The notes beneath the pieces were generated by a model, which saw only the letters and a list, made by a program, of their open reading frames with translations, did not search any database and had not been told where the DNA came from. From a virus (taxonomy: Duplodnaviria > Heunggongvirae > Uroviricota > Caudoviricetes): a DNA stretch of 64,000 bases. The stretch is taken from IMG/VR virus record IMGVR_UViG_3300046011_008537; one strand, given 5' to 3'. Position numbers and translations under genes: made by a program. Positions 4,055 to 42,149 of the stretch are shown here, one piece after another. Every line of letters begins with the position of its first letter. The stretch's first letter is position 1.

Positions 4055-4056
4055 TT

Positions 4057-5446: not shown

Positions 5447-6043
5447 ATGTCAAAACATAGAAAAATATGGGAAGAGCATTATGGTAGTATTCCAAAAGAT
5501 TATGAAGGAAGAACATATGAAATACACCATATAGACGGTAATAGGAATAATAATGATATTACCAATTTGAAATGCGTATCAATATGCGAGCATTTTAATA
5601 TTCATCAAGCGCAAGAGGAATTCGGAGCTTGCGCTATGATAATGAAACGTATGGATATGTCAACAGAACAAATTTCTAATATACAAAAAGGAATTAAAAG
5701 ACCTGGAATTGGAGGAGTAAAAAAAGGAACTATTCCATGGAATAAAGGTAAAAAAATATTTGTTTCTGAAGATTTAAAAATAAAACGTTCTAAAAATAGC
5801 ACTGGGGAATTAAATTCTAAAGCAAAATTAAAAGAAAACCAAGTTATAGAAATATTAGAATTATATTTTAGTAGACCAAAATTAGAGTCAGAAGGAATAA
5901 CACAAAGAAACGGTAGAGTTGATTCATATGAATGGAGTTTTTCTAAGTTTTATGCAAATACTTATGAATTAACTCCAGCAGCTTTAATGCGATTATTAAC
6001 CAAAAAAAGTTGGAAACATGTTTGGGAAAAATACAAAATATAA
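5447..6043 (+). CDS. free-standing HNH homing endonuclease between the two terminase halves
   Basis: HNH motif EIHHIDGNRNNNDITNL...CVSICEHFNIH. Different frame from both terminase halves. Overlaps start of the IntC ORF. Confidence 0.8.
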   Translation: MSKHRKIWEEHYGSIPKDYEGRTYEIHHIDGNRNNNDITNLKCVSICEHFNIHQAQEEFGACAMIMKRMDMSTEQISNIQKGIKRPGIGGVKKGTIPWNKGKKIFVSEDLKIKRSKNSTGELNSKAKLKENQVIEILELYFSRPKLESEGITQRNGRVDSYEWSFSKFYANTYELTPAALMRLLTKKSWKHVWEKYKI

Positions 6044-6344
6044 AATAAAAACTATAAATGGATGGGAAAAGTTTAGAGGTGTAAATAAATTACATAAAAA
6101 ACGAACCGTTCAGATTATAACACAAAATAACTGTTTTCTTGATTGTACTATAGATCATAAAATAAAAACTCTTGATGGTTATAAAGAAATTAGCGAATTA
6201 TCTGATTTAGATTTTATAGAGACTATTCATGGATTTTCTAAAATTGATTTTATTTCTGAAAATTTTGAATTAGAAGAAGTTTTTGATGTCATAGATGCGG
6301 GAAACGATAAATGTTATTATACTAATGGAATTTTATCGCATAAT
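6018..6344 (+). mobile_element. split-intein C-terminal fragment (IntC)
   Basis: Terminal HN followed by Cys. Long IntC with short IntN makes an atypical split intein. Confidence 0.75.
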
Positions 6345-7247
6345 TGCGAATTTTTAGGTTCTACAAATACATTAATCGATGGATCAAAATTACAAACTCT
6401 TGTTGCAGTAGATCCATTAGATACTGATGATGAAATATTTGCTGGAATAACAATTCCAAATGAAATGGATGTATTTATTCCTCCAGTTAAAGAATCATTT
6501 GATGATGAAACTAAAAAACAAATAGATAAAGACCATATCTATGCAATGACTGTTGACGTTTCAGAGGGGAAAAACTTAGATTATGCTGCATTTTCCATTT
6601 TTGATGTATCAACAATTCCATATACACAAGTAGCTACATATAGAAATAATCAATTACATCCAATGTTATTTCCAGATATTATTAAAATGGCTGGAGAATA
6701 TTATAATAATGCATATGTATTAATTGAGGTTAATAATAATCCAACAGTAGCAGATACTTTATTTCAAGATTTAGAATATGAAAATGTATTAAAAGTTTAT
6801 GCAGGAAACAAAAAAGCTCAACAAATAAGCGAGAACGGTAAAGCAACACAAAATGGCGTAAATATGAGTCCATTAGTCAAACGTGTTGGCTGTACCACAT
6901 TAAAGACTTTAATTGAAACTGATAAATTACGAATTAATTCCAGCGAAACTATATATGAATTAACTCGATTTATTGCAACAAATAACTCATTTGCAGCTGA
7001 AGAAGGAGCTAATGATGATTTAGCGATGACTTTGGTTATTTTTGCTTGGTTATCAACTCAAAAATTATTTATAGAATTATCTTCTACAGATATCCGTAAA
7101 AGATTACAAATAGAAAATAATTATATTAAAGAAGATGATATTGACGTTCCACCTATGCCGCAATTTAGTAATCCATTAATGGATAGATTTACATTAGAAG
7201 ATGGTGATTTATGGGAAGTTGTTGAACCAGCAGGATTTTATTATTAA
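6018..7247 (+). CDS. 17: split-intein C-fragment (about 109 aa) fused to terminase large subunit C-terminal fragment (nuclease domain, 300 aa)
   Basis: Hint blocks: B-like TIDHKIKTLDG, F/G block VIDAGNDKCYYTNGILSHN immediately followed by Cys (C-extein +1 at nt 6345). Same reading frame as TerL-N. Confidence 0.85.
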   Translation: MFGKNTKYKIKTINGWEKFRGVNKLHKKRTVQIITQNNCFLDCTIDHKIKTLDGYKEISELSDLDFIETIHGFSKIDFISENFELEEVFDVIDAGNDKCYYTNGILSHNCEFLGSTNTLIDGSKLQTLVAVDPLDTDDEIFAGITIPNEMDVFIPPVKESFDDETKKQIDKDHIYAMTVDVSEGKNLDYAAFSIFDVSTIPYTQVATYRNNQLHPMLFPDIIKMAGEYYNNAYVLIEVNNNPTVADTLFQDLEYENVLKVYAGNKKAQQISENGKATQNGVNMSPLVKRVGCTTLKTLIETDKLRINSSETIYELTRFIATNNSFAAEEGANDDLAMTLVIFAWLSTQKLFIELSSTDIRKRLQIENNYIKEDDIDVPPMPQFSNPLMDRFTLEDGDLWEVVEPAGFYY

Positions 7248-7319: not shown

Positions 7320-9440
7320 ATGGGGTTTCAATTATCACCTGGAGTAAATGTATCAGAAATTGATTTAACTAACGTAGTTCCAGGAGTTAGTTCATCAATA
7401 GGAGCATTTGCCGGACAATTTAGCTGGGGACCAGCAGGTATCAGAACATTAGTAGATTCAGAAAATAGATTAGTTTCTACTTTCGGCAAACCTACAAATG
7501 AAAATTACGCATCATTCTTTACTGCTGCTAATTTCTTAGCGTATACAAACAATCTTAGAGTTGTTAGAGCTATAGACAATTCTAATACATTTAACTCAAC
7601 ATGTATTTCAGAATTTATTAATTTAAATTCTTTAACTGCAAATACTCGTTCAGGGAATACAGAAGTAGTATTTAACCAAAGCATTGGATCTTATTTGAGT
7701 AGCGGAGATAAATTTACATTAACTACAGTTGACGGTCCATTTATTTTGACTGCAAATACAGTTAACGGAAATGTCGTAAATGTTGTTGCTAATATCGTTG
7801 GAGCAGCAAATGGAGCAATTGCAGTTTTACCTACGTCTCAAACAGATGTAAGTATTGCAAACGAAGAAGATTATGAATTAAATTTTGATGCAGGAACATA
7901 TTCTAAATTTGGTGCATTTTTTGGCCGTTATCCAAGCGATTTAGGGAACTCATTAAGTATTTCTGTATGTTCTTCTAATACCTCATTTAGTCAAACAGGA
8001 TTAACTGCAAATACAACATTAGGCTTGCCATCTGTAACATTAAACGTTGGATATGCTAATACATTCTTGACTATTGGCGATATAGTAAAAGTTGGAGGAA
8101 CCGATTATCCTATTTCTGGATTTACTTCTACTTCTGCGACAAATACAGTTTTAGCAGTTTCTAAAAATGGAGCAGCAACTGCAACTAATATTACGGCATC
8201 AACAAGATGGGCGTATGCAGACCAATTTGACTCAAAACCTACTTCATCAGCATATGCTATTGATAGTAAAGGTGCGGAAAACGATGAATTACATATAATT
8301 GTAATTGATACTGATGGAAAAATTACAGGCGAAAAAGGAACTATATTAGAAAAATTTGCTCATGTATCAAAAGCGCAAGACGCTAAAACAGATGACGGCT
8401 CGCCAAGCTATTATGTAACTAAAATTTTAAATGAATCAAAATATATCTATGTTGCTAACCATTTAACTGGTTCGACAAATTGGGGTGATATGCTTGATAA
8501 TGGACTAGTTTACGATAAATTAACAAATTATTATCATAAATTGGGAAGAGGAACTAATGTTGCTCCATCTGCAGGAGATTTACAATTAGCATACGATAAA
8601 TTTAGTAATGCTGATGAAGTTGATATTTCTTTATTGTTATCTGGCGCTGCTGATGCTACTTTAGCTAATCATGTATTAGATATCGTAAATCAAAGAAGAG
8701 ATTGTGTTGCGTTTGTTTCTCCATTAAGAGCTGATGCGGTTGATTCAGTTAATTTAGATAACATTATTGAATATAGAAATGCATTAACTCCATCAACTTC
8801 TTATTCAGTATTTGATTCTGGATGGAAATATCAATTCGATAAATATAACAACAAATATCGTTATGTTCCATTAAATGGTGATACTGCGGGTTTATGTGCT
8901 AGAACTGATAATGTAAGAGATCCATGGTTTTCTCCTGCTGGATTTAATCGCGGTCAAATCTTAAATGCAATTAAATTGTCATGGAATCCAACTAAAGCTC
9001 AAAGAGATGAATTGTACAAAAATGGAATTAATCCAGTTGTTGCATTCCCAGGAGAAGGAATTATCCTTTATGGCGATAAAACAATGCAAATGAAACCATC
9101 TGCATTTGACAGAATTAATGTTCGTAGATTGTTTATTGTTCTTGAAAAAGCTATTGCAATTGCAGCAAAATACTCTCTATTTGAATTCAACGATTCGTTT
9201 ACAAGAGCGCAATTTATATCTATGGTTGAACCATTCTTAAGAGATGTAAAAGGACGTAGAGGTATCTATGATTTCTCGGTAATTTGCGATGAAACAAATA
9301 ATACTGCTGAAGTTATTGATACAAATAGATTCGTTGGTGATATTTACATTAAACCAGCTAGATCTATCAACTTTATCCAGTTGAATTTCGTAGCAGTTCG
9401 TACTGGTGTTGACTTTACTGAAATTGCAGGTAAATTCTAA
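7320..9440 (+). CDS. 18: tail sheath protein gp18
   Basis: 706 aa. Position and size; followed by tube protein gene. Confidence 0.85.
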   Translation: MGFQLSPGVNVSEIDLTNVVPGVSSSIGAFAGQFSWGPAGIRTLVDSENRLVSTFGKPTNENYASFFTAANFLAYTNNLRVVRAIDNSNTFNSTCISEFINLNSLTANTRSGNTEVVFNQSIGSYLSSGDKFTLTTVDGPFILTANTVNGNVVNVVANIVGAANGAIAVLPTSQTDVSIANEEDYELNFDAGTYSKFGAFFGRYPSDLGNSLSISVCSSNTSFSQTGLTANTTLGLPSVTLNVGYANTFLTIGDIVKVGGTDYPISGFTSTSATNTVLAVSKNGAATATNITASTRWAYADQFDSKPTSSAYAIDSKGAENDELHIIVIDTDGKITGEKGTILEKFAHVSKAQDAKTDDGSPSYYVTKILNESKYIYVANHLTGSTNWGDMLDNGLVYDKLTNYYHKLGRGTNVAPSAGDLQLAYDKFSNADEVDISLLLSGAADATLANHVLDIVNQRRDCVAFVSPLRADAVDSVNLDNIIEYRNALTPSTSYSVFDSGWKYQFDKYNNKYRYVPLNGDTAGLCARTDNVRDPWFSPAGFNRGQILNAIKLSWNPTKAQRDELYKNGINPVVAFPGEGIILYGDKTMQMKPSAFDRINVRRLFIVLEKAIAIAAKYSLFEFNDSFTRAQFISMVEPFLRDVKGRRGIYDFSVICDETNNTAEVIDTNRFVGDIYIKPARSINFIQLNFVAVRTGVDFTEIAGKF

Positions 9441-9452
9441 GTAACAGTTAGT

Positions 9453-9478
9453 TTGGTGACGGGGAGACTCGTCACCAA
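9453..9478 (+). terminator. stable hairpin (9-bp stem TTGGTGACG/CGTCACCAA) after gene 18 with no U-tract; attenuator or RNA-stabilising structure
   Basis: Perfect inverted repeat seen in sequence. Followed directly by late promoter. Confidence 0.45.
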
Positions 9479-9482
9479 CCAT

Positions 9483-9490
9483 TATAAATA
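9483..9490 (+). promoter_or_regulatory. late promoter TATAAATA upstream of gene 19
   Basis: Exact TATAAATA. RBS AAGGAG at 9520. Confidence 0.55.
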
Positions 9491-9533
9491 ATTAAAAGAA
9501 TATTTACGATTTTCAAATAAGGAGTATCCGAAC

Positions 9534-10073
9534 ATGGCGTTCAATATTGCAGAATTTAGATCAGCAATGATTGGTGATGGTGCTAGACCGAATTTATTTT
9601 CAGTTTCGCTTACATTTCCAACTGTTGCTAGTGCACCTGTTGCATCTAAACAATTAACATTTATGGCTCATGCTACAACATTACCTCCATCAATTATGGG
9701 CGTTGCATCACAATTTTACTTTGGTCGTCAAGTAAAATTTGCTGGCGATAGACAATTTCCAGATTGGAGTATTACAGTTATTAATGACGAAGATTTTAAT
9801 ATTAGAAATGCATTTGAATCTTGGTCAGATAAGTTAAATAGTCATTCACAAAACGTTCGTGCAGCTGGAGCAATCAATTCAACATTGTATTGCGCTGATG
9901 CTGTTGTTACGCAATACAGTAAAACTGGTGCACCAATCAAACAATATAAATTTGTTGGTATGTTCCCTAATACTGTTGATCCAATTGCTCTTGATTGGGG
10001 TTCAAATGATAGAATTGAAGAATTTGGTGTAACATTCTCGTATCAATACTGGGAATCTAAATCAGTAACCTAA
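9534..10073 (+). CDS. 19: tail tube protein gp19
   Basis: Alignable by eye with T4 gp19 (ARPNLF, FAGDRQFPDWSITVINDE, GVTFSYQYWE). Confidence 0.9.
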   Translation: MAFNIAEFRSAMIGDGARPNLFSVSLTFPTVASAPVASKQLTFMAHATTLPPSIMGVASQFYFGRQVKFAGDRQFPDWSITVINDEDFNIRNAFESWSDKLNSHSQNVRAAGAINSTLYCADAVVTQYSKTGAPIKQYKFVGMFPNTVDPIALDWGSNDRIEEFGVTFSYQYWESKSVT

Positions 10074-10115
10074 TATATAAGAATATACTATTAATATTTA
10101 AAAAGGTAATTTATT

Positions 10116-11792
10116 TTGGCTAAATTTTCATTATTCGGTTTTAAAATAGGGAAAGATACACCAGCACAGGAAGTGCTACCTTCTTTTTCAGCTCCAGTAC
10201 TAGATGATGGTGCAGTTACTATAACTGCAGCAGCGCATTATGGTACCACTATTGATTTAGATTCAAATTATAAAAATGATGTAGAGTTAATTACTCGATA
10301 TCGCGAAATGGCTATGCAACCAGAAATTGAAAGTGCTGTTGATGATATTATTAATGAAGCAATTATCAATGAAGATGGAGTTATTGTAAAATTAAAATTA
10401 GATAATTTGAAAGTTGCACCTAAAATAAAGAAAGCTATTGAAGATGAATTTGATAATATCTTGACTCTTTTGAATTTTAAACAATTGGGTCAAGATATCT
10501 TTAGAAGATATTATATTGATGGAAGAATGTATTATAATATTATTCTCGATAAAGCAAATCCAAATGCAGGTATTCAAGAATTAAGATATACAGATCCAAG
10601 AAAAATTACAAAAATTCGCGAAATTAAAAAAGTAAAAGATCAAACTACTGGTTATGATATTGTTGCTGGTTATGTTGAATATTATATCTATTCTGATACT
10701 ATATCAACAAAATCTAACTTAACAAATTCTGGATTAAGAATTGCTCCAGATTCAATGATTTGCGTTACATCAGGTTTATTGGACGCAAAAAGATCAATTA
10801 TATTAAGTAACTTACATAAATGCATTAAACCTCTAAATCAATTAAGAATGATCGAGGATGCTAGCGTAATTTACAAAGTATCAAGAGCTCCAGAAAGACG
10901 TATTTTTTATATTGATGTTGGTAATCTACCTAAAATGAAGGCAGAACAATATCTTAAAGATATTATGACAAAATATAAAAATAAAGTCGTTTATGATGCT
11001 ACAACAGGTGAAATCAGAGATGATAGAAGATTCCTTTCTATGATGGATGATTTCTGGTTACCTAGACGCTCTGATAATAAATCAACAGAAATTACTACAT
11101 TACCATCTTCTGCTGCATTTGATGATATGTCAATGGTAGAATATTTCGAGAAAAAATTATATAAAGCACTTAATGTTCCATTTTCTAGATTAGTTCAACC
11201 CGATAGTGCATTTGATGTTGGTACAAATCAAGTAATTTCTCGTGATGAAATTAAATTTGACAAATTTATCCAAAGATTAAGAAATAAATTTACTGACGTG
11301 TTTGATCAAGCATTAAAAGTTCAATGCCAATTAAAAGGTATTTGCTCTGATGATGAGTTTGATGTATACAAACAAGATTTCGATTATGCATTTGTTAGAG
11401 ATAATAATTATGCTGAAATGAAAGATTCAGAATTATTACAGAATAGATTAAATTTATTGGCAGTTGTTGATCCATATAAAGGCGTTTATTATTCTCAAGA
11501 ATGGATCCAAAAAAATATCCTTAAAATGGATGACGATGAAATCGAACAAATGCAAAAACAAATTGCACAAGAAATTAAAGATCAAGTATATCCGGACCCA
11601 AAATTAATGAATGATCCAATGGCGGGATTAGGCGGAGATCCAGGAGTTCCCGGAGAAGATCCTAATGCTGATCCAGATGGAGATGGTGTACCTAACGATG
11701 AAGATGCAAATGATCAAGATCCATCTGTAGGTAGATCTCCTTCAGGAAATAAAAAATCAAATAAACAAGCGCAGAATCCGTACTATGACTAA
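10116..11792 (+). CDS. 20: portal vertex protein gp20 (TTG start as in ORF track)
   Basis: 558 aa. Matches T4 gp20 segments (DDGA near N-term, conserved central region). Confidence 0.8.
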   Translation: MAKFSLFGFKIGKDTPAQEVLPSFSAPVLDDGAVTITAAAHYGTTIDLDSNYKNDVELITRYREMAMQPEIESAVDDIINEAIINEDGVIVKLKLDNLKVAPKIKKAIEDEFDNILTLLNFKQLGQDIFRRYYIDGRMYYNIILDKANPNAGIQELRYTDPRKITKIREIKKVKDQTTGYDIVAGYVEYYIYSDTISTKSNLTNSGLRIAPDSMICVTSGLLDAKRSIILSNLHKCIKPLNQLRMIEDASVIYKVSRAPERRIFYIDVGNLPKMKAEQYLKDIMTKYKNKVVYDATTGEIRDDRRFLSMMDDFWLPRRSDNKSTEITTLPSSAAFDDMSMVEYFEKKLYKALNVPFSRLVQPDSAFDVGTNQVISRDEIKFDKFIQRLRNKFTDVFDQALKVQCQLKGICSDDEFDVYKQDFDYAFVRDNNYAEMKDSELLQNRLNLLAVVDPYKGVYYSQEWIQKNILKMDDDEIEQMQKQIAQEIKDQVYPDPKLMNDPMAGLGGDPGVPGEDPNADPDGDGVPNDEDANDQDPSVGRSPSGNKKSNKQAQNPYYD

Positions 11793-12186
11793 AACATTAC
11801 ATAAAGATTTACCTCAGGTTCTAATTCTAAAAAGAACTTATGTCCAAAGATTCCCTAACGGGCAACAAGTAGCTTTGTATCACTCGGAGCACTTAAATCA
11901 ATTTATTACTGTTCCTTTGGACGGTTCTAGCTTTTCTAATACAACAGAATCAGTTTTAGAAAAGTTAACACAAATATCAGAGAATGATGATATAGGAGTT
12001 ATTATATTTGACGACCAGTCGGAGTTAAATATAAATAAAGAATGCGCTGATGTAATTTTAAATTTCATCAACAATAATGAAGAATTAGCAGAAGAATTAC
12101 ACGTTTCAGATAAAAGTTTCTTAGAAATTTTGGAACAGGCTGCTCAATTACAATCAACAGATTTATCGGAAGAATCTGGTCAATAA
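11785..12186 (+). CDS. acidic prohead core protein (gp67/gp68-like)
   Basis: 133 aa, acidic, between portal and prohead protease as in T4. Confidence 0.4.
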   Translation: MTKTLHKDLPQVLILKRTYVQRFPNGQQVALYHSEHLNQFITVPLDGSSFSNTTESVLEKLTQISENDDIGVIIFDDQSELNINKECADVILNFINNNEELAEELHVSDKSFLEILEQAAQLQSTDLSEESGQ

Positions 12187-12202
12187 CAGGAGTTAACAAA
12201 CG

Positions 12203-12844
12203 ATGAAATTGTTAAATGAGTTTACCGAAACAGAAGTTCTTGTAGAAGAAGCTAACGGTAAAAAGAATCATACTATTAAAGGTTATTTCATTCATTGTAA
12301 TGAACAAAACAGAAATGGTAGAGTTTATGTAAAAGAGCATATGCTACCTGAAGTAACAAGATATAAAAGAGATTATATTGATACTCGTAGATCTTTAGGT
12401 GAATTGTCTCACCCAGAAGGACCGCAAATTAATCCAGATAAAGTATCTCACCTTATTACCAAATTGGATTTTGATGATCACCGTTGTTATGGTGAAGCTA
12501 AAGTTTTAGATACTCCCAATGGAAATATCGTAAAATCATTTATTGATGCTGGCGTAAATTTTGGCGTATCAACAAGAGGATTGGGTTCTATCAAAGAATC
12601 TAATGGAATTAAATACGTCCAACCAGATTTTCGTTTAGTAACAGTTGATATTGTATTAGATCCATCAGGTAAAGATTGCTATGTTGAAGGTTTAATGGAA
12701 GGAAAGGAATGGATGTTTATTGAAGGTAAAGGTTGGGTTGAACAATATCTTGAAGAATCAAGAGATACTTTAAGAAAACTTACAGCTAAAGAAGTTGAAC
12801 CGATGGCTCTTAAAATCTTCGAAAACTTTTTAAGAAAACTCTAA
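12203..12844 (+). CDS. 21: prohead core protease gp21
   Basis: 213 aa. T4 gp21-like size and position. Motifs SHPEGP, GVSTRGLGS. Confidence 0.8.
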   Translation: MKLLNEFTETEVLVEEANGKKNHTIKGYFIHCNEQNRNGRVYVKEHMLPEVTRYKRDYIDTRRSLGELSHPEGPQINPDKVSHLITKLDFDDHRCYGEAKVLDTPNGNIVKSFIDAGVNFGVSTRGLGSIKESNGIKYVQPDFRLVTVDIVLDPSGKDCYVEGLMEGKEWMFIEGKGWVEQYLEESRDTLRKLTAKEVEPMALKIFENFLRKL

Positions 12845-14006: not shown

Positions 14007-15341
14007 ATGGCTTTATTAAACGAAGAATTGCAAAATAAATGGAGTCCAGTTCTGGATCATCCAGAATTAGCAAAAATTACTGATCCATACAAAAAAGCAG
14101 TTACTGCAATTGTATTGGAAAATCAACAAGCAGCGATGGATTCAGATCGCGAAACATTGATGGAAGGAACACCAACTAATACAACTGGTGGTATTTCTAA
14201 CTTCGATCCAATTTTAATCAGTTTAGTACGTCGTGCTTTACCTAACTTGATTGCATATGACGTAGCTGGCGTTCAACCAATGACTGGTCCTACTGGATTA
14301 ATCTTTGCTTTACGCTCACGTTATGGCGCTCAAGGTAACGGTACATTCCCTAACGGTGGCGGTAACGAAGCATTCTATAACGAAGCTAATACTATTTTCT
14401 CTGGTATTATCGGCACAGGTGGTTCAACTACTACAGGTACAGCAAATTCAGCTGTAGGTTCTACAGGTCCATTAGCTAATTCAGCTTTTGATACTGGACA
14501 AGCAATGACAACTGCTATGGGTGAAGTATTAGGCGATGGTGCTGGTACTGTATTCGGCGAAATGTCAATTTCAATCGAAAAAGTTACTGTTTCTGCTAGA
14601 ACTCGTGCATTGAAAGCTGAATACAGCTTAGAAATGGCTCAAGATTTGAAAGCAATTCATGGTTTGGATGCTGAAACTGAATTATCAAACGTTTTATCTA
14701 CAGAAATTCTTGCTGAGATGAACCGCGAAGTAATTCGTACAATCTATACAGTAGCTAAAGCTGGTGCTCAATTCGGTACAGTTACTCCAGGCGTATTCGA
14801 CTTAGATACAGACTCAAATGGTCGTTGGTCAGTTGAAAGATTTAAAGGTTTGATTTATCATATCGAAAGAGAAGCTAATCAAATCGCTAAAACAACTCGT
14901 AGAGGAAAAGGTAACATCTTAATCGTTTCTTCTGACGTTGCTTCTGCTCTAGCAATGGCTGGCGTATTGCAATATACTCCTGCGCTATCAGCTGATTTAC
15001 AAGTTGATGATACTGGTAATACATATGCTGGTTTGTTACATGGTCGTATCAAAGTTTATATTGATCCTTACTTCGGTGGTTCATACCAAAACGTTGAATT
15101 ATGTACAGTTGGTTATAAAGGTACAAGTCCTTATGACTCTGGTTTATTCTACTGCCCATACGTTCCTTTACAAATGGTTCGTGCAGTTGATCCAGGTACT
15201 TTCCAACCAAAAATCGGCTTTAAAACTCGTTACGGTTTAGTAGCAAATCCATTCGCTGAAGGTACAACCCAAGGTCAAGGTTTGATTACTCCACGTAGCA
15301 ACAACTATTACAGAATCTTTGCTGTGAAAAACTTAATGTAA
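14007..15341 (+). CDS. 23: major capsid protein gp23
   Basis: 444 aa. Position; RBS AAGGAG. Strongly biased codon use typical of a highly expressed gene. Confidence 0.85.
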   Translation: MALLNEELQNKWSPVLDHPELAKITDPYKKAVTAIVLENQQAAMDSDRETLMEGTPTNTTGGISNFDPILISLVRRALPNLIAYDVAGVQPMTGPTGLIFALRSRYGAQGNGTFPNGGGNEAFYNEANTIFSGIIGTGGSTTTGTANSAVGSTGPLANSAFDTGQAMTTAMGEVLGDGAGTVFGEMSISIEKVTVSARTRALKAEYSLEMAQDLKAIHGLDAETELSNVLSTEILAEMNREVIRTIYTVAKAGAQFGTVTPGVFDLDTDSNGRWSVERFKGLIYHIEREANQIAKTTRRGKGNILIVSSDVASALAMAGVLQYTPALSADLQVDDTGNTYAGLLHGRIKVYIDPYFGGSYQNVELCTVGYKGTSPYDSGLFYCPYVPLQMVRAVDPGTFQPKIGFKTRYGLVANPFAEGTTQGQGLITPRSNNYYRIFAVKNLM

Positions 15342-15346
15342 TTTAG

Positions 15347-15393
15347 TTTTGTTTCATGGATGAAACAAAAAAGGGAGCTTCGGCTCCCTTTTT
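15347..15393. terminator. tandem hairpins (TTTTGTTTCA-TGGA-TGAAACAAAA, then GGGAGC-TTCG-GCTCCC + T5). Bidirectional intrinsic terminator between gene 23 (+) and the convergent minus-strand gene.
   Basis: Perfect inverted repeats. U-tracts on both strands. Confidence 0.7.
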
Positions 15394-15405
15394 CTATTTG
15401 GGAGT

Positions 15406-16215
15406 TTAGAAAAAACTATCTAAATCAAAAGACGTGGATCTTTGATATTTACCTCCACTGGTATCTCGTAAACGTAATTCAGCATGACCTGTAGTTTCAC
15501 GAACATATTTTGTACATAAATCAGGAAATCTACGAACCAAATCATCAGCACTTTTATCAATACGCTCAAGAGTTCGTTCAACTTGCATTCCTCCATCTTC
15601 AGTATAATATTTTGATATAACAGTAATATTATCTAATCGCGAAACTGACCCATCAAGAACGTAATGTTGAAGAGTTCGCTCAAAATCTTCTTTATCACAT
15701 AATTGAACCATACGATCTTGATGTTTATCGTTAATGCAGCCCCACAGCGACCCAATGCAGTAATATAAACCAGTCTTAGGGGTATAACTCATAAAAAACG
15801 CATTCGACGCTGCATAGACTCCACAGAGCATATTTTCGTTCTCCCGCATGATATTATACATCGGTTCAAATACTTCTTTATGGATATCTTCAATTGGCTC
15901 CATTTTCTTTTCATCAGCAGGAGCTTTGCGCATAATACTCGATAAATCATCATCAAAGTTTACAACAAATTCCCCCTCATCATAATAATTTCTAATGAAG
16001 TTTCTAATCGGTCCCATACCAACAACGCCTACAACAATATTTTTGTTATAAATGTTATCTTTTAATGATGTTTCGTATGCAGTCTTTTCGACATCATTAG
16101 CAACAAAGATTGTTACTGTACTTGGATCTACATTATATTTCTCCAATACACTTAAAGTTTTATCTCTAAGCGTATCAGATCGTTTATACGAAGGAATTGC
16201 AATATTCAATTTCAT
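15406..16215 (-). CDS. putative GT-A fold glycosyltransferase
   Basis: N-terminal IAIPSYKR (GT2-like) and DxD motif NFDDDL. 269 aa. One of only two substantial minus-strand genes in the window. Confidence 0.4.
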   Translation of the reverse strand: MKLNIAIPSYKRSDTLRDKTLSVLEKYNVDPSTVTIFVANDVEKTAYETSLKDNIYNKNIVVGVVGMGPIRNFIRNYYDEGEFVVNFDDDLSSIMRKAPADEKKMEPIEDIHKEVFEPMYNIMRENENMLCGVYAASNAFFMSYTPKTGLYYCIGSLWGCINDKHQDRMVQLCDKEDFERTLQHYVLDGSVSRLDNITVISKYYTEDGGMQVERTLERIDKSADDLVRRFPDLCTKYVRETTGHAELRLRDTSGGKYQRSTSFDLDSFF

Positions 16216-16239
16216 AATCTACCCTTTAATTTTAACTAA

Positions 16240-16275
16240 AAATAATATAAATATATTATACTATATTATTTTGAT
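16240..16275 (-). promoter_or_regulatory. candidate sigma70-like promoter on minus strand (TTTACA-17-TATAAT) for the GT-A gene
   Basis: Reverse complement of 16240-16275 reads cTTTACAatatcaaaataatatagTATAATa. Confidence 0.35.
16246..16253 (+). promoter_or_regulatory. TATAAATA late-promoter box on + strand about 100 nt upstream of the GIY-YIG gene
   Basis: Exact TATAAATA. Confidence 0.3.
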
Positions 16276-16360
16276 ATTGTAAAGCAAAAAAAATGCTTAT
16301 CACGATCCTGGCAGATCTATAAGCTCTAAACATTCGTTTTAACATTCATAGAGAATATCA

Positions 16361-17083
16361 ATGCCCAGCAAAAATATTTATACAAATAAAAATAAATTTA
16401 CCTTAAACTATTATGTTTATGCATACATAAGAACAATCGATTCAATAACAGCAAAAAGCGGCACGCCATATTATATAGGAAAAGGTATAAAAAATAGAGC
16501 ATTTAAAAAACACGGAAAAGTTCCTGTTCCTAAAGACAAAAATTATATAGTTTTTGTTGAAACTAATTTAACAGAAATCGGTGCATTAGCTATAGAACGA
16601 AAATTAATTAAATGGTATGGAAGAAAAGATTTAGGAACAGGAATTCTATTAAATAGAACTGATGGCGGAGACGGGATATCAAATCCATCAATATGTATTC
16701 GTAAAAAAATATCTATAGGGCAAAAAAATAGAATAATATCTGACAGCGAAAAACAAAATACAGCAAAAAGAATGATCGGTAATACATATGGAACTGGGAA
16801 AAATTTAAAAAACACTAATGCAGCAGGAAAAAGGTCAAAACAAGCTATAGAAAATTCAGCTTTAGCGCATAGAAAAATTTATAATATAATTTCTCCTAAT
16901 GGAAAGAATTATTTTATTTTAGGGTTAAAACAAATATGTAAGAAATTAAATTTAAATTATAGTGGTATGTTAAATGTATCAAGAGGAATAAAATTACACC
17001 AAAATGGATGGAAATGTATTAAGGTTGGGAAGATACAAGATTTCCCCAACCTTAATTTAACTTCTCTAGAAGAAATCTTCTAA
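16361..17083 (+). CDS. GIY-YIG homing endonuclease (seg-like)
   Basis: GIY-YIG motif YVYAYIR...PYYIGKG; basic C-terminal DNA-binding region. Confidence 0.7.
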
Positions 17084-18484
17084 TCCATTACATTCGTTTG
17101 CAGATTTTAACCAAGGGTGACGTTCAATTAACCATTTTTCTCCAACGTCGCCTTTTGCTTTTAAGAAATCATACCATTCTTTTGCTGCAGAATAATTATA
17201 GTTTTTATCTGGAGTATCAGCCCACATTCCTGGAGTAATACCATTCCAACGATATCTTTGGTTTGGATGATTTGGGTTTAATCTGCGACTATCAATAAAT
17301 TCTCTTCTTGCATCTTCATAATCATAAGACCCAAGTTCTAACATTTTTTCATGAAAAAAGGCTATAATAGAAATTCTTTCTGAATTTGGATTATTCTTTA
17401 TCATTTCAGTATTGCCATGCAAACCTGCTTGATTATTTACTAATAATAAATCAGTAGGTCTAATATCAACTGCATACCCAATTTCAGGAAATACCAAATA
17501 ACACCCAGAATAGTCATCATTATTGCTAATTACACAAAGATTAGCAAACCCGTTTTCCATATTAGCAGGATCGTAATGACCCGCTGTTCTAAAGTCTCTA
17601 TTTACTGTAATTGTCGTAAATGGAGTATCCGGTACAACAAATCTTTGATCGATCGATTCTGCAGCACGTTTTTGATTACCATAACGCCATGGCAGCATAT
17701 CTTTAAAACCTTTAGCTAAAGATTGTAAGAATGGATAAGACTTAGAAAACTTTTCTAGATTATCTCTTGTATAGGTAGTTGGTCTACCAAAAGGAATTCT
17801 AGGATATCTATCATACCAACCAGCAATACCAGAATTTACGACATTAGCATAAGTCGTTTTACTAATCAATTTATCTAATACTCGTTGAGCTTCAGCTTTT
17901 GCTTCATCAATAGTTAATGCGCATAATTTATCGATAAAGTCATTAAATACAAATTTCTCAGCTCTAATTTGCTCAGTCAACCAGACGACACCACGACTAT
18001 CATCAGATTTAAGATTTTTATACTTAGCTCGTATTAAATCAACATCTGCCTTTGGCGTATATCCGCCAAATACTGAAGTCGAATTTTTATGTGCAAAGAA
18101 TTCTAATAAATCAAATTGTTCATCAGTAACCCATTCTCTTCCTGCGCATGTAGCAGTTCTTGGACCACCAGCCATACCACGATTTTGCGTTTCAACAGCT
18201 GCATCTCGTAAACCAGCATAAGCGGCATCAGCTTCTTCTTTAGTAAAAAAGTTTTTACGAAATTTAAATACGATATTTTTTTCAGATAATCCTTTTGAAC
18301 AACCAGAACAATTCATATCATTATCGCAATTTTCTTCGGCAGTAAAATCTGCGCAATCTGGAGGAAGATATACATCTAAATCTTCTTCAACTAATATCTT
18401 ATAATGGCTTTCATCAAGCCATTTACCAACCAAATCGGGTCTTGGAGTTACCTCTTCTGGTTTTAAAACTACAACTTTTACCAT
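17066..18484 (-). CDS. large 2OG-Fe(II) dioxygenase (472 aa) with N-terminal Cys-rich region; candidate nucleic-acid base hydroxylase
   Basis: Facial triad HYD (HxD)...LHGNTE (His)...RIS (RxS) in a DSBH-like spacing. N-terminal CxxC cluster [19 protein letters not shown]. Convergent with the GIY-YIG gene. Confidence 0.55.
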
Positions 18485-18494
18485 CTATATCTCC

Positions 18495-18530
18495 TATTGT
18501 AAGATTCAAGTATATTGTACTACATAACTT
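18495..18530 (-). promoter_or_regulatory. candidate early promoter on minus strand (TTTACT-17-TACAAT preceded by A-tract) for the dioxygenase gene
   Basis: Reverse complement reads aaaaaaagcTTTACTttttttaagttatgtagTACAAT. Confidence 0.3.
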
Positions 18531-18564
18531 AAAAAAAGTAAAGCTTTTTTTGTATTTAGAATTT

Positions 18565-18572
18565 TATAAATA
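18565..18572 (+). promoter_or_regulatory. late promoter TATAAATA upstream of the gp19 paralog
   Basis: Exact TATAAATA 28 nt upstream of the ATG at 18600. Confidence 0.5.
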
Positions 18573-18599
18573 CAAGTAAATAAATTATAAGGATTTTTT

Positions 18600-19139
18600 A
18601 TGGCTTTCGAAGATACAAACGTCTGTAATACCGATTTATTACAGTCATCGAAGTTTACTTTTATAATTCCAAGATTAACAGAGGTTCAGTTTTTCTGTCA
18701 AGCTGTTAATATTCCTGGAGTAAACACGCAAAGTACAGTTCAGTTATCTCCATTTAGGGATATGGGTGTTCCAGGCGATAAAATGGAATACGAAGATCTT
18801 AATGTAGAATTTCTTGTTGATGAAGAATTGCGCTCTTGGGCGTCAATTTATTATTGGATTAAAGGTTATACGCAAGCCGAAACTTGGGATGATTATAAAA
18901 ATTTAGATAAATTATCAAAATATAGTCAATACGAATATTTAAATACTCCACAATATGCAGATGCATTATTAACAACATTATCTGCAGCTGACGATAAACC
19001 AAAAGTACAAATACATTTTATTGATTTGTTTCCTGTATATGTTTCTGCTATACCTTTAGATGTTAGGATTAGTTCTGAAAAAATTATTACTGCTACAGCA
19101 ACATTTAGATTTAAAAGGTATGAAATAGCATTAGTTTAA
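18600..19139 (+). CDS. tail tube family paralog (gp19-like fold; possibly tail-tube terminator gp3-like or baseplate tube protein)
   Basis: 179 aa. N-terminal pattern FTFIIPRL...CQAVNIPGV and C-terminal ATFRFKRYE mirror gp19 (LTFMAHATTLPPSI...GVTFSYQYWE). Own late promoter. Confidence 0.45.
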   Translation: MAFEDTNVCNTDLLQSSKFTFIIPRLTEVQFFCQAVNIPGVNTQSTVQLSPFRDMGVPGDKMEYEDLNVEFLVDEELRSWASIYYWIKGYTQAETWDDYKNLDKLSKYSQYEYLNTPQYADALLTTLSAADDKPKVQIHFIDLFPVYVSAIPLDVRISSEKIITATATFRFKRYEIALV

Positions 19140-27868: not shown

Positions 27869-28540
27869 ATGATTTCTAAATATCTAACACAAATACAAAA
27901 TGACGGGTTACAAATAGATGTTGTTTATGATATTGGCGCTCATCAAGGTAGTTGGTCTAGTTATTTAAAATCCAACGTTTTACCTGTTAGCGATTTTTAT
28001 TTATTTGAAGCTGACTCAATACATCAGTCTTCTTTAGAAGAATTAGGTTTTCCATATTTTATTGGAGTATTAAGTAATCCTGGGAGAAAATTTGTTGAGT
28101 TTTATAACACAAATTCAACTGATTGTAGCACTGGTAGTTCTTATTATAAAGAAAATACTGTTTATTATGATAATTTTTCTGCAGTTAAATTTCCTTGTAC
28201 AACGTTAGAATCACTTATAATTGAATATGGTTTACCAATACCTAATCTACTAAAAATAGATACGCAAGGTTCTGAATTAGATATTTTGCGCGGCGTTGAA
28301 TCATATATAGATAATATTGATTTGATATATTTAGAATGCCCTATAATTAAATATAACATTCATGCTCCATCTATTCAAGATTATATAGATTATATGAAAG
28401 AAAAAGGATTTATTCCTACTGAAGTAATGGAAATCCATAGATATGAACATGTATTATTACAAATAGATATTATGTTTATTAATTGCGCAACAAAAGAATG
28501 GCTTTATGGTCCAACTGAATTTAGTCGACCTTTAGTTTAA
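27869..28540 (+). CDS. FkbM-family SAM-dependent methyltransferase
   Basis: DIGAHQGSW ... LLKIDTQGSELDIL ... LIYLE pattern typical of FkbM-domain methyltransferases. Confidence 0.55.
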   Translation: MISKYLTQIQNDGLQIDVVYDIGAHQGSWSSYLKSNVLPVSDFYLFEADSIHQSSLEELGFPYFIGVLSNPGRKFVEFYNTNSTDCSTGSSYYKENTVYYDNFSAVKFPCTTLESLIIEYGLPIPNLLKIDTQGSELDILRGVESYIDNIDLIYLECPIIKYNIHAPSIQDYIDYMKEKGFIPTEVMEIHRYEHVLLQIDIMFINCATKEWLYGPTEFSRPLV

Positions 28541-30345: not shown

Positions 30346-31029
30346 ATGAAAATTTCTCAAGAAACAACTGCTATTCTAAAAAACTTTGCTCACATCAATC
30401 AAGGCATCTTTTTTAGAAAAGGTAATACTGTTTCAACTATGAGTCCAGGTAAAAATATTTTATCTGTGGCTACTATCTCAGATACAATTCCTCAAGACTT
30501 TGGTATTTACGATTTAAATAATTTCTTATCCGTTGCTTCTTTATTTAAAGAAGGTCCAGAATTAGAATTTGATGATAAACATGTTATTATTAAAGGTCGC
30601 GGAGGTCGTAGTAAAATTAAATATCGCGTTGCTGATCAATCAATGATTGTTGTCCCACCAGAAAAACTTCCTAATGTTCCAGCTCCAGATGTTAAATTTA
30701 CATTCTCTAAAGAAGATTTTGAATGGGTGTTAAAAACTGCAACCGTTCTTGGTGCACCTCATGTTGCTGTTGAATCAGATGGTACTACAGTTTCCTTAGT
30801 TACTTTCGATGAAGCAAATGATTCAAGTCATGTTAATTCATTAGAAATGGCTGACGTTGATCCAGAAGGTAAAGTATTTAAATTAGTATTTAAAGCTGAA
30901 AATTTAAAAGTTATCCCAGATACCTATTCAGTTGAGATTTCAAGTAAAGGTATCTCAGCATGGACTTCTACTACAGCTGAATTAAAATATTGGATTACTA
31001 TTGAAACTAGTTCAACATTTGGTAAATAA
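30346..31029 (+). CDS. 45: sliding clamp gp45
   Basis: 227 aa (T4 228 aa). N-terminal TTAILKNFAHINQGI aligns with T4 TTALLKNFATINSGI. Confidence 0.8.
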   Translation: MKISQETTAILKNFAHINQGIFFRKGNTVSTMSPGKNILSVATISDTIPQDFGIYDLNNFLSVASLFKEGPELEFDDKHVIIKGRGGRSKIKYRVADQSMIVVPPEKLPNVPAPDVKFTFSKEDFEWVLKTATVLGAPHVAVESDGTTVSLVTFDEANDSSHVNSLEMADVDPEGKVFKLVFKAENLKVIPDTYSVEISSKGISAWTSTTAELKYWITIETSSTFGK

Positions 31030-35263: not shown

Positions 35264-37780
35264 ATGTCAAAATTCTACACTGACGTATCTATATTAGGGA
35301 ATAGTATTTTATACAAAGGGATTGAAAATGGTAAGCGAGTTCAGTTCAAATATGAATATTCGCCTAAAGTTTATGTTAAATCAAATAAACAAAGTGATTG
35401 GAAAAATCTTTTCGGTCAATATGTTGAAGAAATCCAACCTGGAGATATTAAAGAAACCCGTGATTTTATTAAAAGATACGAAGATGTAGATAATTTTGAA
35501 ATTTATGGTGATATCGGATTCGATGTCCAATTTATCTCTGATCAATTTCCAAAAGTTATTGATTGGGATATAGAATACATTAATTCATATGTATTGGATA
35601 TCGAAACTGCAACAGAAAATTCCGGTTTTCCATCTCCTGATTTAGCAGCAGAAGAAGTTCTTCTTATCACTATGAAAAACATGAAAACAAAACGCTCTAC
35701 AACTTTTATGTCTAGAGAATATACTGGAAATAAAAAAGAAAACTGTGAGTTTATTTTATGTGATGATGAGTATTCTTTATTGAACCGTTTTGTTGATTTC
35801 TGGAAACATAGCGATATTGATATTATTACAGGTTGGAACGTTGAAGGGTTCGATATAAAATATCTTGTTAATCGTATTGCTAAAATTATTAGCGAAGATA
35901 GAGTTAAGGATTTAAGTCCATGGAACAGGATTAAAGAACGAAAAACTAAAGACGATTTTGGTAAACCAACAACTCTATTTGAAATTGTTGGAGTTAACGT
36001 TGTTGACTTTCGAGATCTTTATAAAAAATACGGACAGAAAAAACCAGAAAATTTACGATTAGAAACTGTAGCTCAGTTAGTTTTAGGTCATGGTAAATTA
36101 GATCATAGTGAATTTGATACATTTAAAGATTTTTACACTAATGGTTGGAATAAGTTTGTGGATTATAACATTATCGACTGCGATAGAGTCGATGAGCTAG
36201 AAGATTCAGAAAAACTTATTGATTTGTGCTTAACCATGAGTTATTTGGCCAAAATTAATTATGGTGATATTTATAGCCAAATTAGAATGTGGGATGCAAT
36301 TATTTTTAATCATTTAAAAGCGAATAAAATTGTAATTCCACCTAGATCTAAAAATAGTAAAAATGAACAGTTTGAAGGTGCTTTTGTTCGTGAACCAGTT
36401 CCTGGGTTTTATCGTAATATTGCTAGTTTCGATGCCACTAGTTTGTATCCAAGTATTTTACAAACATGGAATATTTCGTTGGAAACTTTTACTGGTATGT
36501 TTGATGGTAATATTACAACTAAAGGTTTATTAGATAAAGAATATACTTTTCCAGAAGAATATGCTGTTGCAGCTAATGGTGCTATGTATCGCAAAGACAA
36601 AGTTGGTATGATTCCTGAGTTGATTGACGTTTATATGAAAAAACGTAAAGAGGCGAAATCAACAATGTTAAAATATGAATCTGAAATGGAGTTATTAAAA
36701 GCTAATAAAGATTATGATAAAAAAGAATACAAAAGAATATCTAATTTAATTTCAAAGTTTAATAATGAGCAGATGGCATTTAAAATTGCTATGAATAGTT
36801 TGTATGGAGCTTTAGGTAACGCTTTCTTTAGATATTACACCTTAGAAAATGCTCGAGCTGTAACTTTATCTGGTCAATACATTATTATTTCCGTTGGTGA
36901 ATTTGTTAAATTAAAATTAGATAAAATGTTTAAAGCTGATTATCCATGGGTAATTTATCAAGATACAGATTCAATTTATCTTTCGTTAGAACCTATTGTT
37001 AATAAATTTTATTCTGATAAAGAATTTAAAGAAATTGTTCCTGTTTTAAGTAAAATTTGTAAAGAAAAGATTGATCCAATTATTAATGAATGTTGTGATG
37101 ATTTGCAAGCCTATACTCATGTAAAACGTAACTGTATTTCATTTAAACTTGAGGGTATTAGTTCTAATGGTTTTTGGACTGGTAAAAAACGATATGCATT
37201 AAATGTGTATGAAAATGAAGGTGTTGTTTATAACGAACCTAAGATAAAAATTATGGGTCTTGAAGTTGTTAAATCTTCAACTCCATTAGTTATTCGCGAT
37301 AAACTTCGTAGCTCAGTTGGTTTGATTTTAAATGGAACTGAAGAGGATATTCAAAATTTTGTTTCTGAAGTAAAAAGCGAGTTTAAAAAATATTCTGTCG
37401 AAGAGATTGCGTTTCCTCGTGGAGTAAATGGTATTGAAAAGTATTCTGATTCAGAAACCATTTATGGTAATAAATGTCCGATTCATACTAAAGGTTCGAT
37501 CCTATATAACAATAAACTTCGTGAAATGAGTCTTCAGAATAGATATGAAATGATTGGTGAAGGTGCGCATATTAAATTTTGTTATTTAAAATTACCTAAT
37601 CCATTAAAACATGAAGTAATTTCATTTCCAGTTTCAATTCCACCTGAGTTTGATTTAGAACAATATGTAGATTACGATAAACAGTATGAAAAAACTTTCT
37701 TGGACCCATTAAATGGTATGTTGGAAGCCATTGGTTGGTCGCATGAAAGAAGAAATTGTATTGATGACTTTTTTGCTTAA
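35264..37780 (+). CDS. 43: DNA polymerase gp43 (family B)
   Basis: 838 aa. Exo motifs (DIET, YNIIDC), pol motifs (DxxSLYPS, KIAMNSLYG, YQDTDS). Confidence 0.9.
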   Translation: MSKFYTDVSILGNSILYKGIENGKRVQFKYEYSPKVYVKSNKQSDWKNLFGQYVEEIQPGDIKETRDFIKRYEDVDNFEIYGDIGFDVQFISDQFPKVIDWDIEYINSYVLDIETATENSGFPSPDLAAEEVLLITMKNMKTKRSTTFMSREYTGNKKENCEFILCDDEYSLLNRFVDFWKHSDIDIITGWNVEGFDIKYLVNRIAKIISEDRVKDLSPWNRIKERKTKDDFGKPTTLFEIVGVNVVDFRDLYKKYGQKKPENLRLETVAQLVLGHGKLDHSEFDTFKDFYTNGWNKFVDYNIIDCDRVDELEDSEKLIDLCLTMSYLAKINYGDIYSQIRMWDAIIFNHLKANKIVIPPRSKNSKNEQFEGAFVREPVPGFYRNIASFDATSLYPSILQTWNISLETFTGMFDGNITTKGLLDKEYTFPEEYAVAANGAMYRKDKVGMIPELIDVYMKKRKEAKSTMLKYESEMELLKANKDYDKKEYKRISNLISKFNNEQMAFKIAMNSLYGALGNAFFRYYTLENARAVTLSGQYIIISVGEFVKLKLDKMFKADYPWVIYQDTDSIYLSLEPIVNKFYSDKEFKEIVPVLSKICKEKIDPIINECCDDLQAYTHVKRNCISFKLEGISSNGFWTGKKRYALNVYENEGVVYNEPKIKIMGLEVVKSSTPLVIRDKLRSSVGLILNGTEEDIQNFVSEVKSEFKKYSVEEIAFPRGVNGIEKYSDSETIYGNKCPIHTKGSILYNNKLREMSLQNRYEMIGEGAHIKFCYLKLPNPLKHEVISFPVSIPPEFDLEQYVDYDKQYEKTFLDPLNGMLEAIGWSHERRNCIDDFFA

Positions 37781-42140: not shown

Positions 42141-42149
42141 GAAATAATT

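Follow-up and report, generated by a model that had tools for sequence, protein, structure and literature searches.

Between the major capsid gene (14007-15341) and a tail-tube-fold gene (18600-19139) of the Caudoviricetes record IMGVR_UViG_3300046011_008537 lie a dioxygenase gene and a glycosyltransferase gene that, judged by sequence and modelled fold, probably (about 60%) form a two-enzyme module for post-replicative DNA hypermodification, which would make a sugar-bearing thymine derivative while docked on the sliding clamp. The window, by which we mean the whole stretch of 64,000 nucleotides analyzed, is part of a marine T4-like myophage with a G+C content of ~31%, whose major capsid protein is ~60% identical to those of Melnitz, HTVC008M, DLP6, and cyanomyophages. 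In the proposed mechanism, the dioxygenase would hydroxylate a base in DNA, most likely converting thymine to 5-hydroxymethyluracil (5hmU), and the GT-A enzyme would then move a sugar from a nucleotide-sugar donor onto the hydroxymethyl hydroxyl. This would yield a glycosylated 5hmU resembling base J, which would shield the DNA from host nucleases. Short C-terminal tails would hold both enzymes on the sliding clamp, gp45, and modification would thereby follow the fork. The identity and linkage of the sugar and the anti-restriction role are parts of this proposal that we infer.

The three open reading frames (ORFs) between the two structural genes were recovered with the positions and lengths of the original prediction, which was made from the DNA letters alone (Table 1). 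Its claim that the dioxygenase and glycosyltransferase genes are the only sizeable minus-strand genes in 64 kb held up as well, since all other minus-strand ORFs of at least 80 amino acids (aa) measure 81-121 aa and overlap plus-strand genes. No near-identical DNA for the 3.3-kb region was found among 50,697 phage records, and NCBIfam gave zero matches for the dioxygenase, glycosyltransferase, and endonuclease proteins. Homologs of the dioxygenase are nevertheless abundant, with 2269 from a protein search and at least 588 loci in IMG/VR, and the loci examined lie mostly in T4-like myophage contexts. Cultured carriers of this dioxygenase clade include Stenotrophomonas phage DLP6, Caulobacter phage Cr30, phage C48C1, and Synechococcus phage S-CBWM1. 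For the comparisons below we used 76 related loci (designated by L numbers), each with a complete dioxygenase gene and 8-kb flanks, alignments of 44 dioxygenase and 39 GT-A homologs for residue conservation, and 120 homologs of each enzyme for counts of C-terminal tails.

Sequence and fold support the assignment of the dioxygenase to the TET/JBP type. Its only Pfam match at E ≤ 1 was Tet_JBP (PF12851; 86.0 bits against a cut-off of 34.9, E 2e-24, residues 245-379), and PHROG 24024 aligned with it along nearly the whole length. The HxD...H...RxS triad named in the original prediction is present as H303-x-D305, H356, and R370, all invariant among the homologs, with S372 at least 90% conserved; R370 corresponds to the Arg that holds the C5 carboxylate of 2-oxoglutarate (2OG). 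Likewise invariant is R299, four residues N-terminal of H303, a candidate for the Arg that binds C1 of 2OG. The Cys-rich N-terminal domain that had been predicted proved real, with C44, C53, C59, and C62 each at least 90% conserved; this domain of ~205 aa is followed by a double-stranded beta-helix core and a C-terminal helical extension. The beta-helix fold is nearest to TET-family structures and not to the AlkB or prolyl-hydroxylase types, and profile searches gave the same placement, far above AlkB and prolyl hydroxylases. The label ‘SNF2 DNA repair protein’, carried in public records by the homologs of Cr30, DLP6, and S-CBWM1, was dropped after Pfam found no SNF2 domain.

The glycosyltransferase matched the Pfam family ‘TET-Associated Glycosyltransferase’ (TAGT; PF20691) over profile positions 2-205 of 205 (44.3 bits versus 27.5, E 2.6e-11). 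Among the PHROG families it matched phrog_25200 (2e-42) and phrog_842, beta-glucosyl-HMC-alpha-glucosyltransferase (HMC, hydroxymethylcytosine; 8e-11). The GT2-like N-terminus and DxD motif of the original prediction correspond to IAIPSYKR and to D88-D89-D90, which, together with R71, are invariant among the GT-A homologs. Further along, a KEDFERT stretch holds E176-D177-F178, with D177 and E179 invariant and K175 and E176 at least 90% conserved. The enzyme thereby carries (as R71, D88-D89-D90, and E176-D177-F178) the R..DDD..EDY/F signature of GT-A DNA glycosyltransferases associated with 5-methylpyrimidine dioxygenases (5mYOX) (Pyle et al., bioRxiv 10.1101/2023.12.21.572611). Its AlphaFold2 (AF2) model has a GT-A fold (predicted local distance difference test, pLDDT, 93.1), and the best Foldseek matches in the PDB were RmlT, TarS, CgT, AvpGT, and TarP (E 7e-8 to 1e-5), TarP likewise being the top PDB match reported for these enzymes (Pyle et al., bioRxiv 10.1101/2023.12.21.572611).

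In the window, an endonuclease gene alone parts the two genes. At the same locus in L019-L021, L023, and L040, the glycosyltransferase gene comes immediately after the dioxygenase gene, and the two are also adjacent in L006 and S-CBWM1; the endonuclease-free relatives with the adjacent pair at this locus share 82-88% protein identity with the window, and the closest relatives overall (82-96%) share the locus. Together with the PF20691 match and the published signature, this adjacency supports the original reading of the pair as a DNA base hydroxylation and glycosylation module. In S-CBWM1, the pair is directly followed by genes for a phosphatase and a glucose-1-phosphate thymidylyltransferase (L012:6058-7139).

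Table 1 Features of the modification locus and related features elsewhere in the window
Feature	Coordinates	Strand	Basis or description
Bidirectional intrinsic terminator, capsid/glycosyltransferase boundary	15367..15393	.	AAAAAA-GGGAGC-TTCG-GCTCCC-TTTTT, read directly
GT-A fold DNA glycosyltransferase, TET-associated (TAGT) family, 269 aa (predicted)	15406..16215	-	Pfam, PHROG, alignment, model
Glycosyltransferase tail codons DLDSFF, putative sliding-clamp-binding motif	15409..15426	-	Homolog conservation
997-bp segment marking this genome against endonuclease-free relatives	16224..17220	.	blastn against L019-L021, L040
Sigma-70-like promoter candidate, glycosyltransferase gene	16255..16283	-	TTTACA-17-TATAAT, 11/12 consensus match, intergenic
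Homing-endonuclease gene, free-standing, 240 aa	16361..17083	+	GIY-YIG-like N-terminus by motif, NUMOD-like DNA-binding region near C-terminus
5-Methylpyrimidine dioxygenase (5mYOX, TET/JBP family), 472 aa (predicted)	17066..18484	-	Profile, motifs, fold
Dioxygenase tail codons GLEDFF, putative sliding-clamp-binding motif	17069..17086	-	Homolog conservation
Weak sigma-70-like promoter candidate, dioxygenase gene	18514..18542	-	TTTACT-17-TACAAT, 9/12
Sliding clamp (gp45 homolog), proposed docking partner	30346..31029	+	Pfam gp45-slide_C, DNA_PPF
DNA polymerase (gp43 homolog), C-terminus ..CIDDFFA	35264..37780	+	Same tail type

The pairing of a dioxygenase with a glycosyltransferase is an already established and experimentally studied class. 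Iyer and Aravind are said to have predicted this type of module computationally in 2013. Aravind and coworkers raised the possibility that the hydroxyls installed by phage TET/JBP homologs are handles on which further modification builds, and the module type was shown experimentally between 2021 and 2026 (Burke 2021, PMC8256090; Pyle, bioRxiv 10.1101/2023.12.21.572611; O'Toole 2026, PMC13229309). The window's module resembles the known phage clusters of 5mYOX and glycosyltransferase in its PF12851 domain, in a GT-A enzyme with the R..DDD..EDY/F signature, and in the order dioxygenase then glycosyltransferase; it resembles the predicted and proven T-dioxygenase clades in having no C5-methyltransferase neighbor in the window. 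Characterized phage 5mYOX enzymes are shorter, at an estimated ~280-300 aa (the last conserved residue of 5mYOX176 is C280, and the enzymes of HTVC112P and P12024L have 302 and 288 aa). Unlike them, the window's protein has 472 aa, including the Cys-bearing N-terminal domain and the C-terminal helical extension, resides in a T4-like genome, and belongs to a pathway in which all enzymes bear a polymerase-type tail.

Among the ORFs of the window and the neighbor clusters of relatives that were scanned, none had a ParB domain by Pfam, which sets the module apart from the ParB-dependent T-dioxygenase subclass (O'Toole 2026). Pelagiphage HTVC112P, whose catalytic domain is 42% identical to that of the dioxygenase, does have an adjacent ParB, and in this phage a gene for an FkbM methyltransferase (L014:3569-4267) directly follows the ParB-5mYOX pair. 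An FkbM-family methyltransferase gene is also found in the early region of the window (27869-28540), and some phages might O-methylate the hydroxymethyl group. Among isolates, the glycosyltransferase has its closest homologs (36% identity) in mycobacteriophage Acadian, where they adjoin genes for a ParB-like protein and a ‘queuine tRNA-ribosyltransferase’; the stretch of the record covered (L013:1-2441) contains no TET gene. If this ‘queuine’ gene is DpdA-like, the TAGT family may also serve a 7-deazaguanine-type DNA modification.

In its logic, the module follows kinetoplastid base J, where a TET/JBP dioxygenase (JBP1 or JBP2) makes 5hmU and a GT-A enzyme (JGT) glycosylates it. JBP1 carries a J-DNA-binding domain, and JBP2 contains one of SWI2/SNF2 type. 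The window's dioxygenase, with Tet_JBP as its sole Pfam match, differs in having no such accessory domain; the setting also differs, being a phage in which the proposed purpose is defense evasion and not transcription control. The phage GT-A DNA glycosyltransferases are structurally closest to the JGT of T. cruzi (Pyle et al., bioRxiv 10.1101/2023.12.21.572611). With T4 the module would share the post-replicative glycosylation of a hydroxymethylpyrimidine in a T4-type phage, as known for 5-hydroxymethylcytosine (5hmC). The difference is that the hydroxymethyl group would here be made on DNA by the dioxygenase, whereas T4 uses dCMP hydroxymethylase at the nucleotide level before replication. 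The alpha- and beta-glucosyltransferases of T4 are GT-B enzymes. The beta-glucosyl-HMC-alpha-glucosyltransferase of T2/T6 type has been assigned to PF20691 (PMC13216743), and PHROG 842 bears the same name. A third comparison is with the thymidine hypermodification of ViI, M6, and PhiW-14, which involves a 5-hydroxymethyldeoxyuridine (5-hmdU) DNA kinase and an amino-acid:DNA transferase: relatives with an 81% identical dioxygenase carry such a cassette, whereas the window has the glycosyltransferase branch and not the kinase/transferase branch. In the classical systems, 5hmdU comes from dUMP hydroxymethylase before replication.

Both enzymes end in a flexible linker followed by the same type of short acidic-hydrophobic tail as on the DNA polymerase of the same genome. 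Among window ORFs of at least 60 aa, the ending [LI][DE]xFF is confined to the polymerase, the dioxygenase, and the glycosyltransferase; the gp55-like protein ends in ..GIETFLED. The tail, [ST/G][LI][ED]xFF(x), closes 117 of the 120 dioxygenase homologs, with F471 and F472 at least 90% conserved in the alignment. In the GT-A homologs the strict tail is found in 99 of 120, with ~9 more showing L[ED]xLF variants, and is preceded by a poorly conserved linker of variable length. Both predicted models give the last residues low confidence and a short terminal helix. DNA polymerase matches in the related loci end in a [SN][LI]EDFFG-type tail (..SSLEDFFG) in 29 of 31 cases, and in cultured phage DLP6 the polymerase ends in ..ATLDSFFA and the dioxygenase in ..ATLGDFFV. 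Furthermore, tails of this type extend to alternative partners in related contigs, namely GT-B enzymes (..SLDSFF, ..LEDLFG), many amino-acid:DNA transferases (..GLEMFT, ..NLESFF), a 213-aa partner (..SLEEFLK), and some kinases (..IEQFFK). The tail was missing from all 194 control proteins (UvsX, gp41, gp23, UvsY, UvsW, and GATase) and from the homologs in three phages outside the T4-like group, namely the mycobacteriophage Acadian, the pelagiphage HTVC112P, and the Nonlabens phage P12024L.

The T4 proteins gp43, gp55, and gp33 bind gp45 through hydrophobic-acidic C-termini that sit on variable linkers and can be exchanged for one another (PMC2988020). Because the tail matches that of the polymerase and because such C-termini bind gp45 in T4, we infer that it binds the sliding clamp. 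The likeness to the T4 clamp ligands covers the position at the extreme C-terminus, the hydrophobic-acidic motif, the variable and probably unstructured linker, and the type shared with the polymerase; the differences are that the carriers here are DNA base-modifying enzymes and that binding is putative. The T4 alpha-glucosyltransferase co-purifies with gp45 (PMC13216743). A broader proposal, which we hold at even odds, is that T4-like phages use the sliding clamp as a toolbelt for post-replicative hypermodification, with the dioxygenase and all tailoring enzymes tethered by their tails. Clamp tethering would then be a third route for the delivery of a 5mYOX to DNA, beside the ParB-dependent and stand-alone routes, with gp45 in the role of the ParB clamp. 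In the literature searched we found no mention of a polymerase-like tail on enzymes of such pathways or of a clamp tether for them.

Two observations count against tethering: the tails of S-CBWM1 and Cr30 depart from the motif, and in T4 the clamp interaction of alpha-glucosyltransferase is not the main determinant of glucosylation levels (PMC13216743). The latter would suit a tail that is no clamp ligand and that instead addresses another replisome or packaging hub or acts as a signal for localization or turnover common to these proteins. Homologs of the gp41 helicase also own a distinct conserved tail (..FxGFKF), which argues for several C-terminal docking codes in these phages. We regard this alternative as rather unlikely. 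The tail is of the type found on the DNA polymerases encoded in the same genomes, the polymerase C-terminus of T4 and RB69 being a clamp-binding epitope on a variable linker that is interchangeable among ligands (PMC2988020), and the homologs that have no tail occur in phage types that would not be expected to encode a gp45-type clamp. In L016-L095, the gp41 homologs end in ..F[SED]GFKF, and the one in the window (39377-40774) ends in ..SFDGFKV, unlike the polymerase-type tail. This helicase tail may represent another docking code, for instance one for primase or a loader.

Context makes thymine the likely substrate of the dioxygenase. A methyltransferase gene adjoins the phage TET gene in the proven clades A and B, whose enzymes act on 5-methylcytosine (5mC) (Burke 2021, PMC8256090). 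Within the sequence covered, the window's dioxygenase lacks this mark of the 5mC type: Pfam detected no C5-methyltransferase (PF00145-type) among the window ORFs of at least 80 aa (scanned outside the structural genes at 3095-5399 and 7320-12844), and a search by crude regular expressions for PCQ..ENV or FxGxG..PCQ motifs found none in ~1.06 Mb of six-frame translation covering the window and 97 loci. In published surveys, a C5-methyltransferase occurs in only 6% of 5mYOX pathways. Most relatives carry sets of GATase, amidoligase, amino-acid:DNA transferase, and P-loop kinase, which have been called T-hypermodification machinery (O'Toole et al. 2026, PMC13229309). One of them, L024, has an 81% identical dioxygenase at the same locus and an active-site strand identical to that of the window. 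The missing C5-methyltransferase signature and these cassettes together make thymine likelier than 5mC. The window itself encodes ThyX, dCMP deaminase, and ribonucleotide reductase, from which we conclude that ordinary thymidylate and dTTP are made.

Across the family, the active-site strand is alike whichever partner follows, save for E/D/N changes at two positions. A substrate call from active-site residues was dropped: the equivalent of TET2 N1387, which we take to be the same position as NgTET1 D234, is N308 in half of the family and D in the other half, and this split is uninformative because both halves are linked to the same downstream cassettes.

Several points weigh against the thymine reading. 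The literature holds no rules for the T versus 5mC selectivity of TETs, so residues cannot settle the substrate; P-loop kinases also partner 5mC-type TETs; and the 64 kb cover part of a genome of probably 130-200 kb, the rest of which could hold a C5-methyltransferase. Against the hypermodification reading as a whole, phage TETs of clades C and D were in some cases inactive in E. coli (Burke et al. 2021, PMC8256090). The same chemistry could act on cytosine if the host or the remaining phage DNA encoded a C5-methyltransferase; the resulting 5mC would be oxidized to 5hmC and glycosylated in the manner of clades A and B. The characterized enzymes of those clades act on 5mC, the GT-A enzymes assayed so far were tried on 5hmC, and the PF20691 enzyme of T2/T6 type uses a cytosine derivative (PMC13216743). 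The nearest solved folds to the dioxygenase are also all 5mC enzymes, with no structure of a JBP catalytic domain among the matches, which may reflect a bias of the solved structures. Given that the 76 related loci, like the window, yielded no C5-methyltransferase domain or motif, that the methyltransferase is adjacent in clades A and B, and that most relatives are tied to thymidine-type cassettes, we consider this route quite improbable and retain thymine as the likelier substrate.

2OG oxygenases and glycosyltransferases are common auxiliary genes of marine T4-like phages. That the two enzymes act off DNA, the dioxygenase on RNA, a nucleotide, or a protein and the glycosyltransferase, alongside the window's many sugar and LPS-type genes, on a cell-surface or virion glycan, is very improbable all the same. 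At least three further 2OG oxygenases and a sugar-metabolism cluster of 9 kb are encoded in the window, but fold and profile put the dioxygenase inside the TET/JBP clade and well above AlkB and prolyl hydroxylase, only this one of ~5 glycosyltransferase-like ORFs in the window bears the polymerase-type tail, and the partner genes of relatives encode DNA-modifying enzymes. The other 2OG-Fe(II) oxygenase genes lie at 198-494, 508-1188, and 29293-29844 (2OG-FeII_Oxy_3, 2OG-FeII_Oxy_5, FlmC-like), none with a polymerase-type tail. The sugar cluster (40771-49569) encodes a GT2, an HtrL/YibB-like protein, a fusion of HAD phosphatase and sugar nucleotidyltransferase, a TylF-like O-methyltransferase, a GT-B-like protein, and an NAD-dependent epimerase/dehydratase. 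None of its proteins has the polymerase-type tail, and the cluster could supply an unusual nucleotide-sugar donor for DNA glycosylation.

The endonuclease gene that parts the pair varies among near-identical genomes, which bears out the mobile insertion hotspot suggested by the original prediction. Among the 76 loci, the 240-aa ORF occurs only in L016-L018 (at least 91% identity) besides the window and is absent from L019-L023 and L040. In blastn comparisons, homology of 85-97% with L019-L021 and L040 ends at window position 17221 and restarts at 16223, so that 997 bp in the window stand in place of ~119 bp in the endonuclease-free relatives. The flanking DNA of L019 is 95.6% and 97.3% identical on the two sides, yet this locus has no endonuclease gene; since relatives 96-97% identical in flanking DNA are without it, the gene is a recent insertion. 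The 997-bp segment contains the promoter region of the glycosyltransferase gene, the endonuclease gene, and a substitute for the last ~52 dioxygenase codons, which resembles the C-termini of more distant 472-aa homologs. The replacement looks like a homing or co-conversion event, in which a selfish homing endonuclease would have entered recently, carrying a replacement 3' end for the dioxygenase gene. The endonuclease gene (plus strand) converges with the dioxygenase gene (minus strand) and overlaps it by 18 nt. In L017 (~11080-12520) and L023 (4716-6155), an extra 480-aa ORF with a weak REase_MTES_1575 match lies between the glycosyltransferase and capsid genes, replacing the terminator region. 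This ORF and the endonuclease polymorphism together mark the site as an insertion hotspot.

The GIY-YIG assignment of the endonuclease stood in part. Its motifs are legible (YVYAYIR..YYIGKG..NRAFKKH..ERKLI..LNRTDGG), and the annotations of tblastn homologs name group I intron endonuclease, GIY-YIG, or NUMOD3; some cyanophages have several copies. Pfam gave a weak I-HmuI_NUMOD-like match (E 0.019) and no GIY-YIG match at E ≤ 1, phrog_15526 was matched as well, phmmer against the PDB returned nothing relevant, and BLASTP against a provisional I-TevI sequence was not significant. In addition, the gene lies on the plus strand, although it had been described as part of a minus-strand cassette.

A second kind of variation at the locus concerns the partner of the dioxygenase. 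The genes downstream of it in the 76 loci encode a GT-A enzyme in 7 cases, a GT-B enzyme in 7 (plus one GT-B with an amino-acid:DNA transferase), and a P-loop kinase alone in 3; none was visible in 9, mostly short contigs. Combinations of GATase, amidoligase, low-molecular-weight (LMW) phosphatase, amino-acid:DNA transferase (PF18724), and P-loop nucleotide kinase account for 49 of the 76 loci, or 49 of the 67 with a visible partner. L024 and L025, with an 81% identical dioxygenase at the same locus between capsid (gp23) and tail-tube (gp3) genes, carry a cassette of GATase, amidoligase, LMW phosphatase, amino-acid:DNA transferase, and P-loop kinase where the window has the glycosyltransferase, and their homology to the window ends at the same 17221 breakpoint.

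Expression of both genes early in infection is plausible, judging by their strand and by promoter-like sites. The bidirectional terminator of the original prediction was confirmed by direct reading as a perfect GC-rich hairpin (15373-15388) between an A-run (15367-15372) and a T-run (15389-15393), separating the convergent capsid and glycosyltransferase genes. An automated terminator scan returned none, perhaps because the stem is able to extend into the flanking A/T runs. The sigma-70-like promoters fared less evenly: the site upstream of the glycosyltransferase gene matches the consensus well, and that of the dioxygenase gene is weak. Promoter-like sites number 16 in the region versus 18.8 in shuffles, a lack of enrichment that tells against the early-expression component of our reading; being as common in shuffled sequence, the candidates carry little weight. 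Ahead of the late genes stand TATAAATA boxes of T4 type, such as the one at 18564 before the tail-tube-fold gene. This gene is one of two in the window that encode 179-aa tail-tube-fold proteins (9534-10073 and 18600-19139), and we take it to be probably the gp3-type tube terminator, from the usual marine T4-like order gp23-gp3-uvsY-uvsW-gp55-gp47-gp46.

Further endonuclease genes lie elsewhere in the window and bring the homing-endonuclease-like genes in its 64 kb to four. The gene of the large terminase is broken into two same-frame ORFs (4491-5399 and 6018-7247), with an HNH endonuclease ORF in another frame (5447-6043) between them. Its junctions look like intein ends (..QEFA|CVTGDTIVE.. 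and ..GILSHN|CEFLGS..), and a Pfam profile test of the fused terminase fragment found no Hint or intein domain. A similar arrangement, that of ‘fractured genes’ in which split inteins accompany a free-standing endonuclease, has reportedly been described from marine metagenomes. Two more free-standing HNH-type ORFs (HHIIPKC..LT.REH; 56415-57212 and 62508-63149) lie next to the ThyX and ribonucleotide reductase genes.

The module adds a large, uncharacterized clade to the phage TET/JBP enzymes and points to base-J-like DNA in abundant marine viruses, which would bear on restriction and CRISPR evasion and possibly on sequencing recovery. Its locus is a clean natural case of cassette swapping at fixed breakpoints, where one site and one dioxygenase are combined with alternative followers: a GT-A enzyme, a GT-B enzyme, a lone kinase, or a full amino-acid-transfer cassette. 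As a hypothesis, the clamp tether is specific and apparently new. If the tail binds gp45, it would help to explain how post-replication enzymes reach a large genome efficiently, would serve as a simple marker by which DNA-modifying enzymes could be picked out of T4-like genomes, and would tie the ParB-clamp dependence of other 5mYOXs to a general, clamp-assisted mode of base modification.

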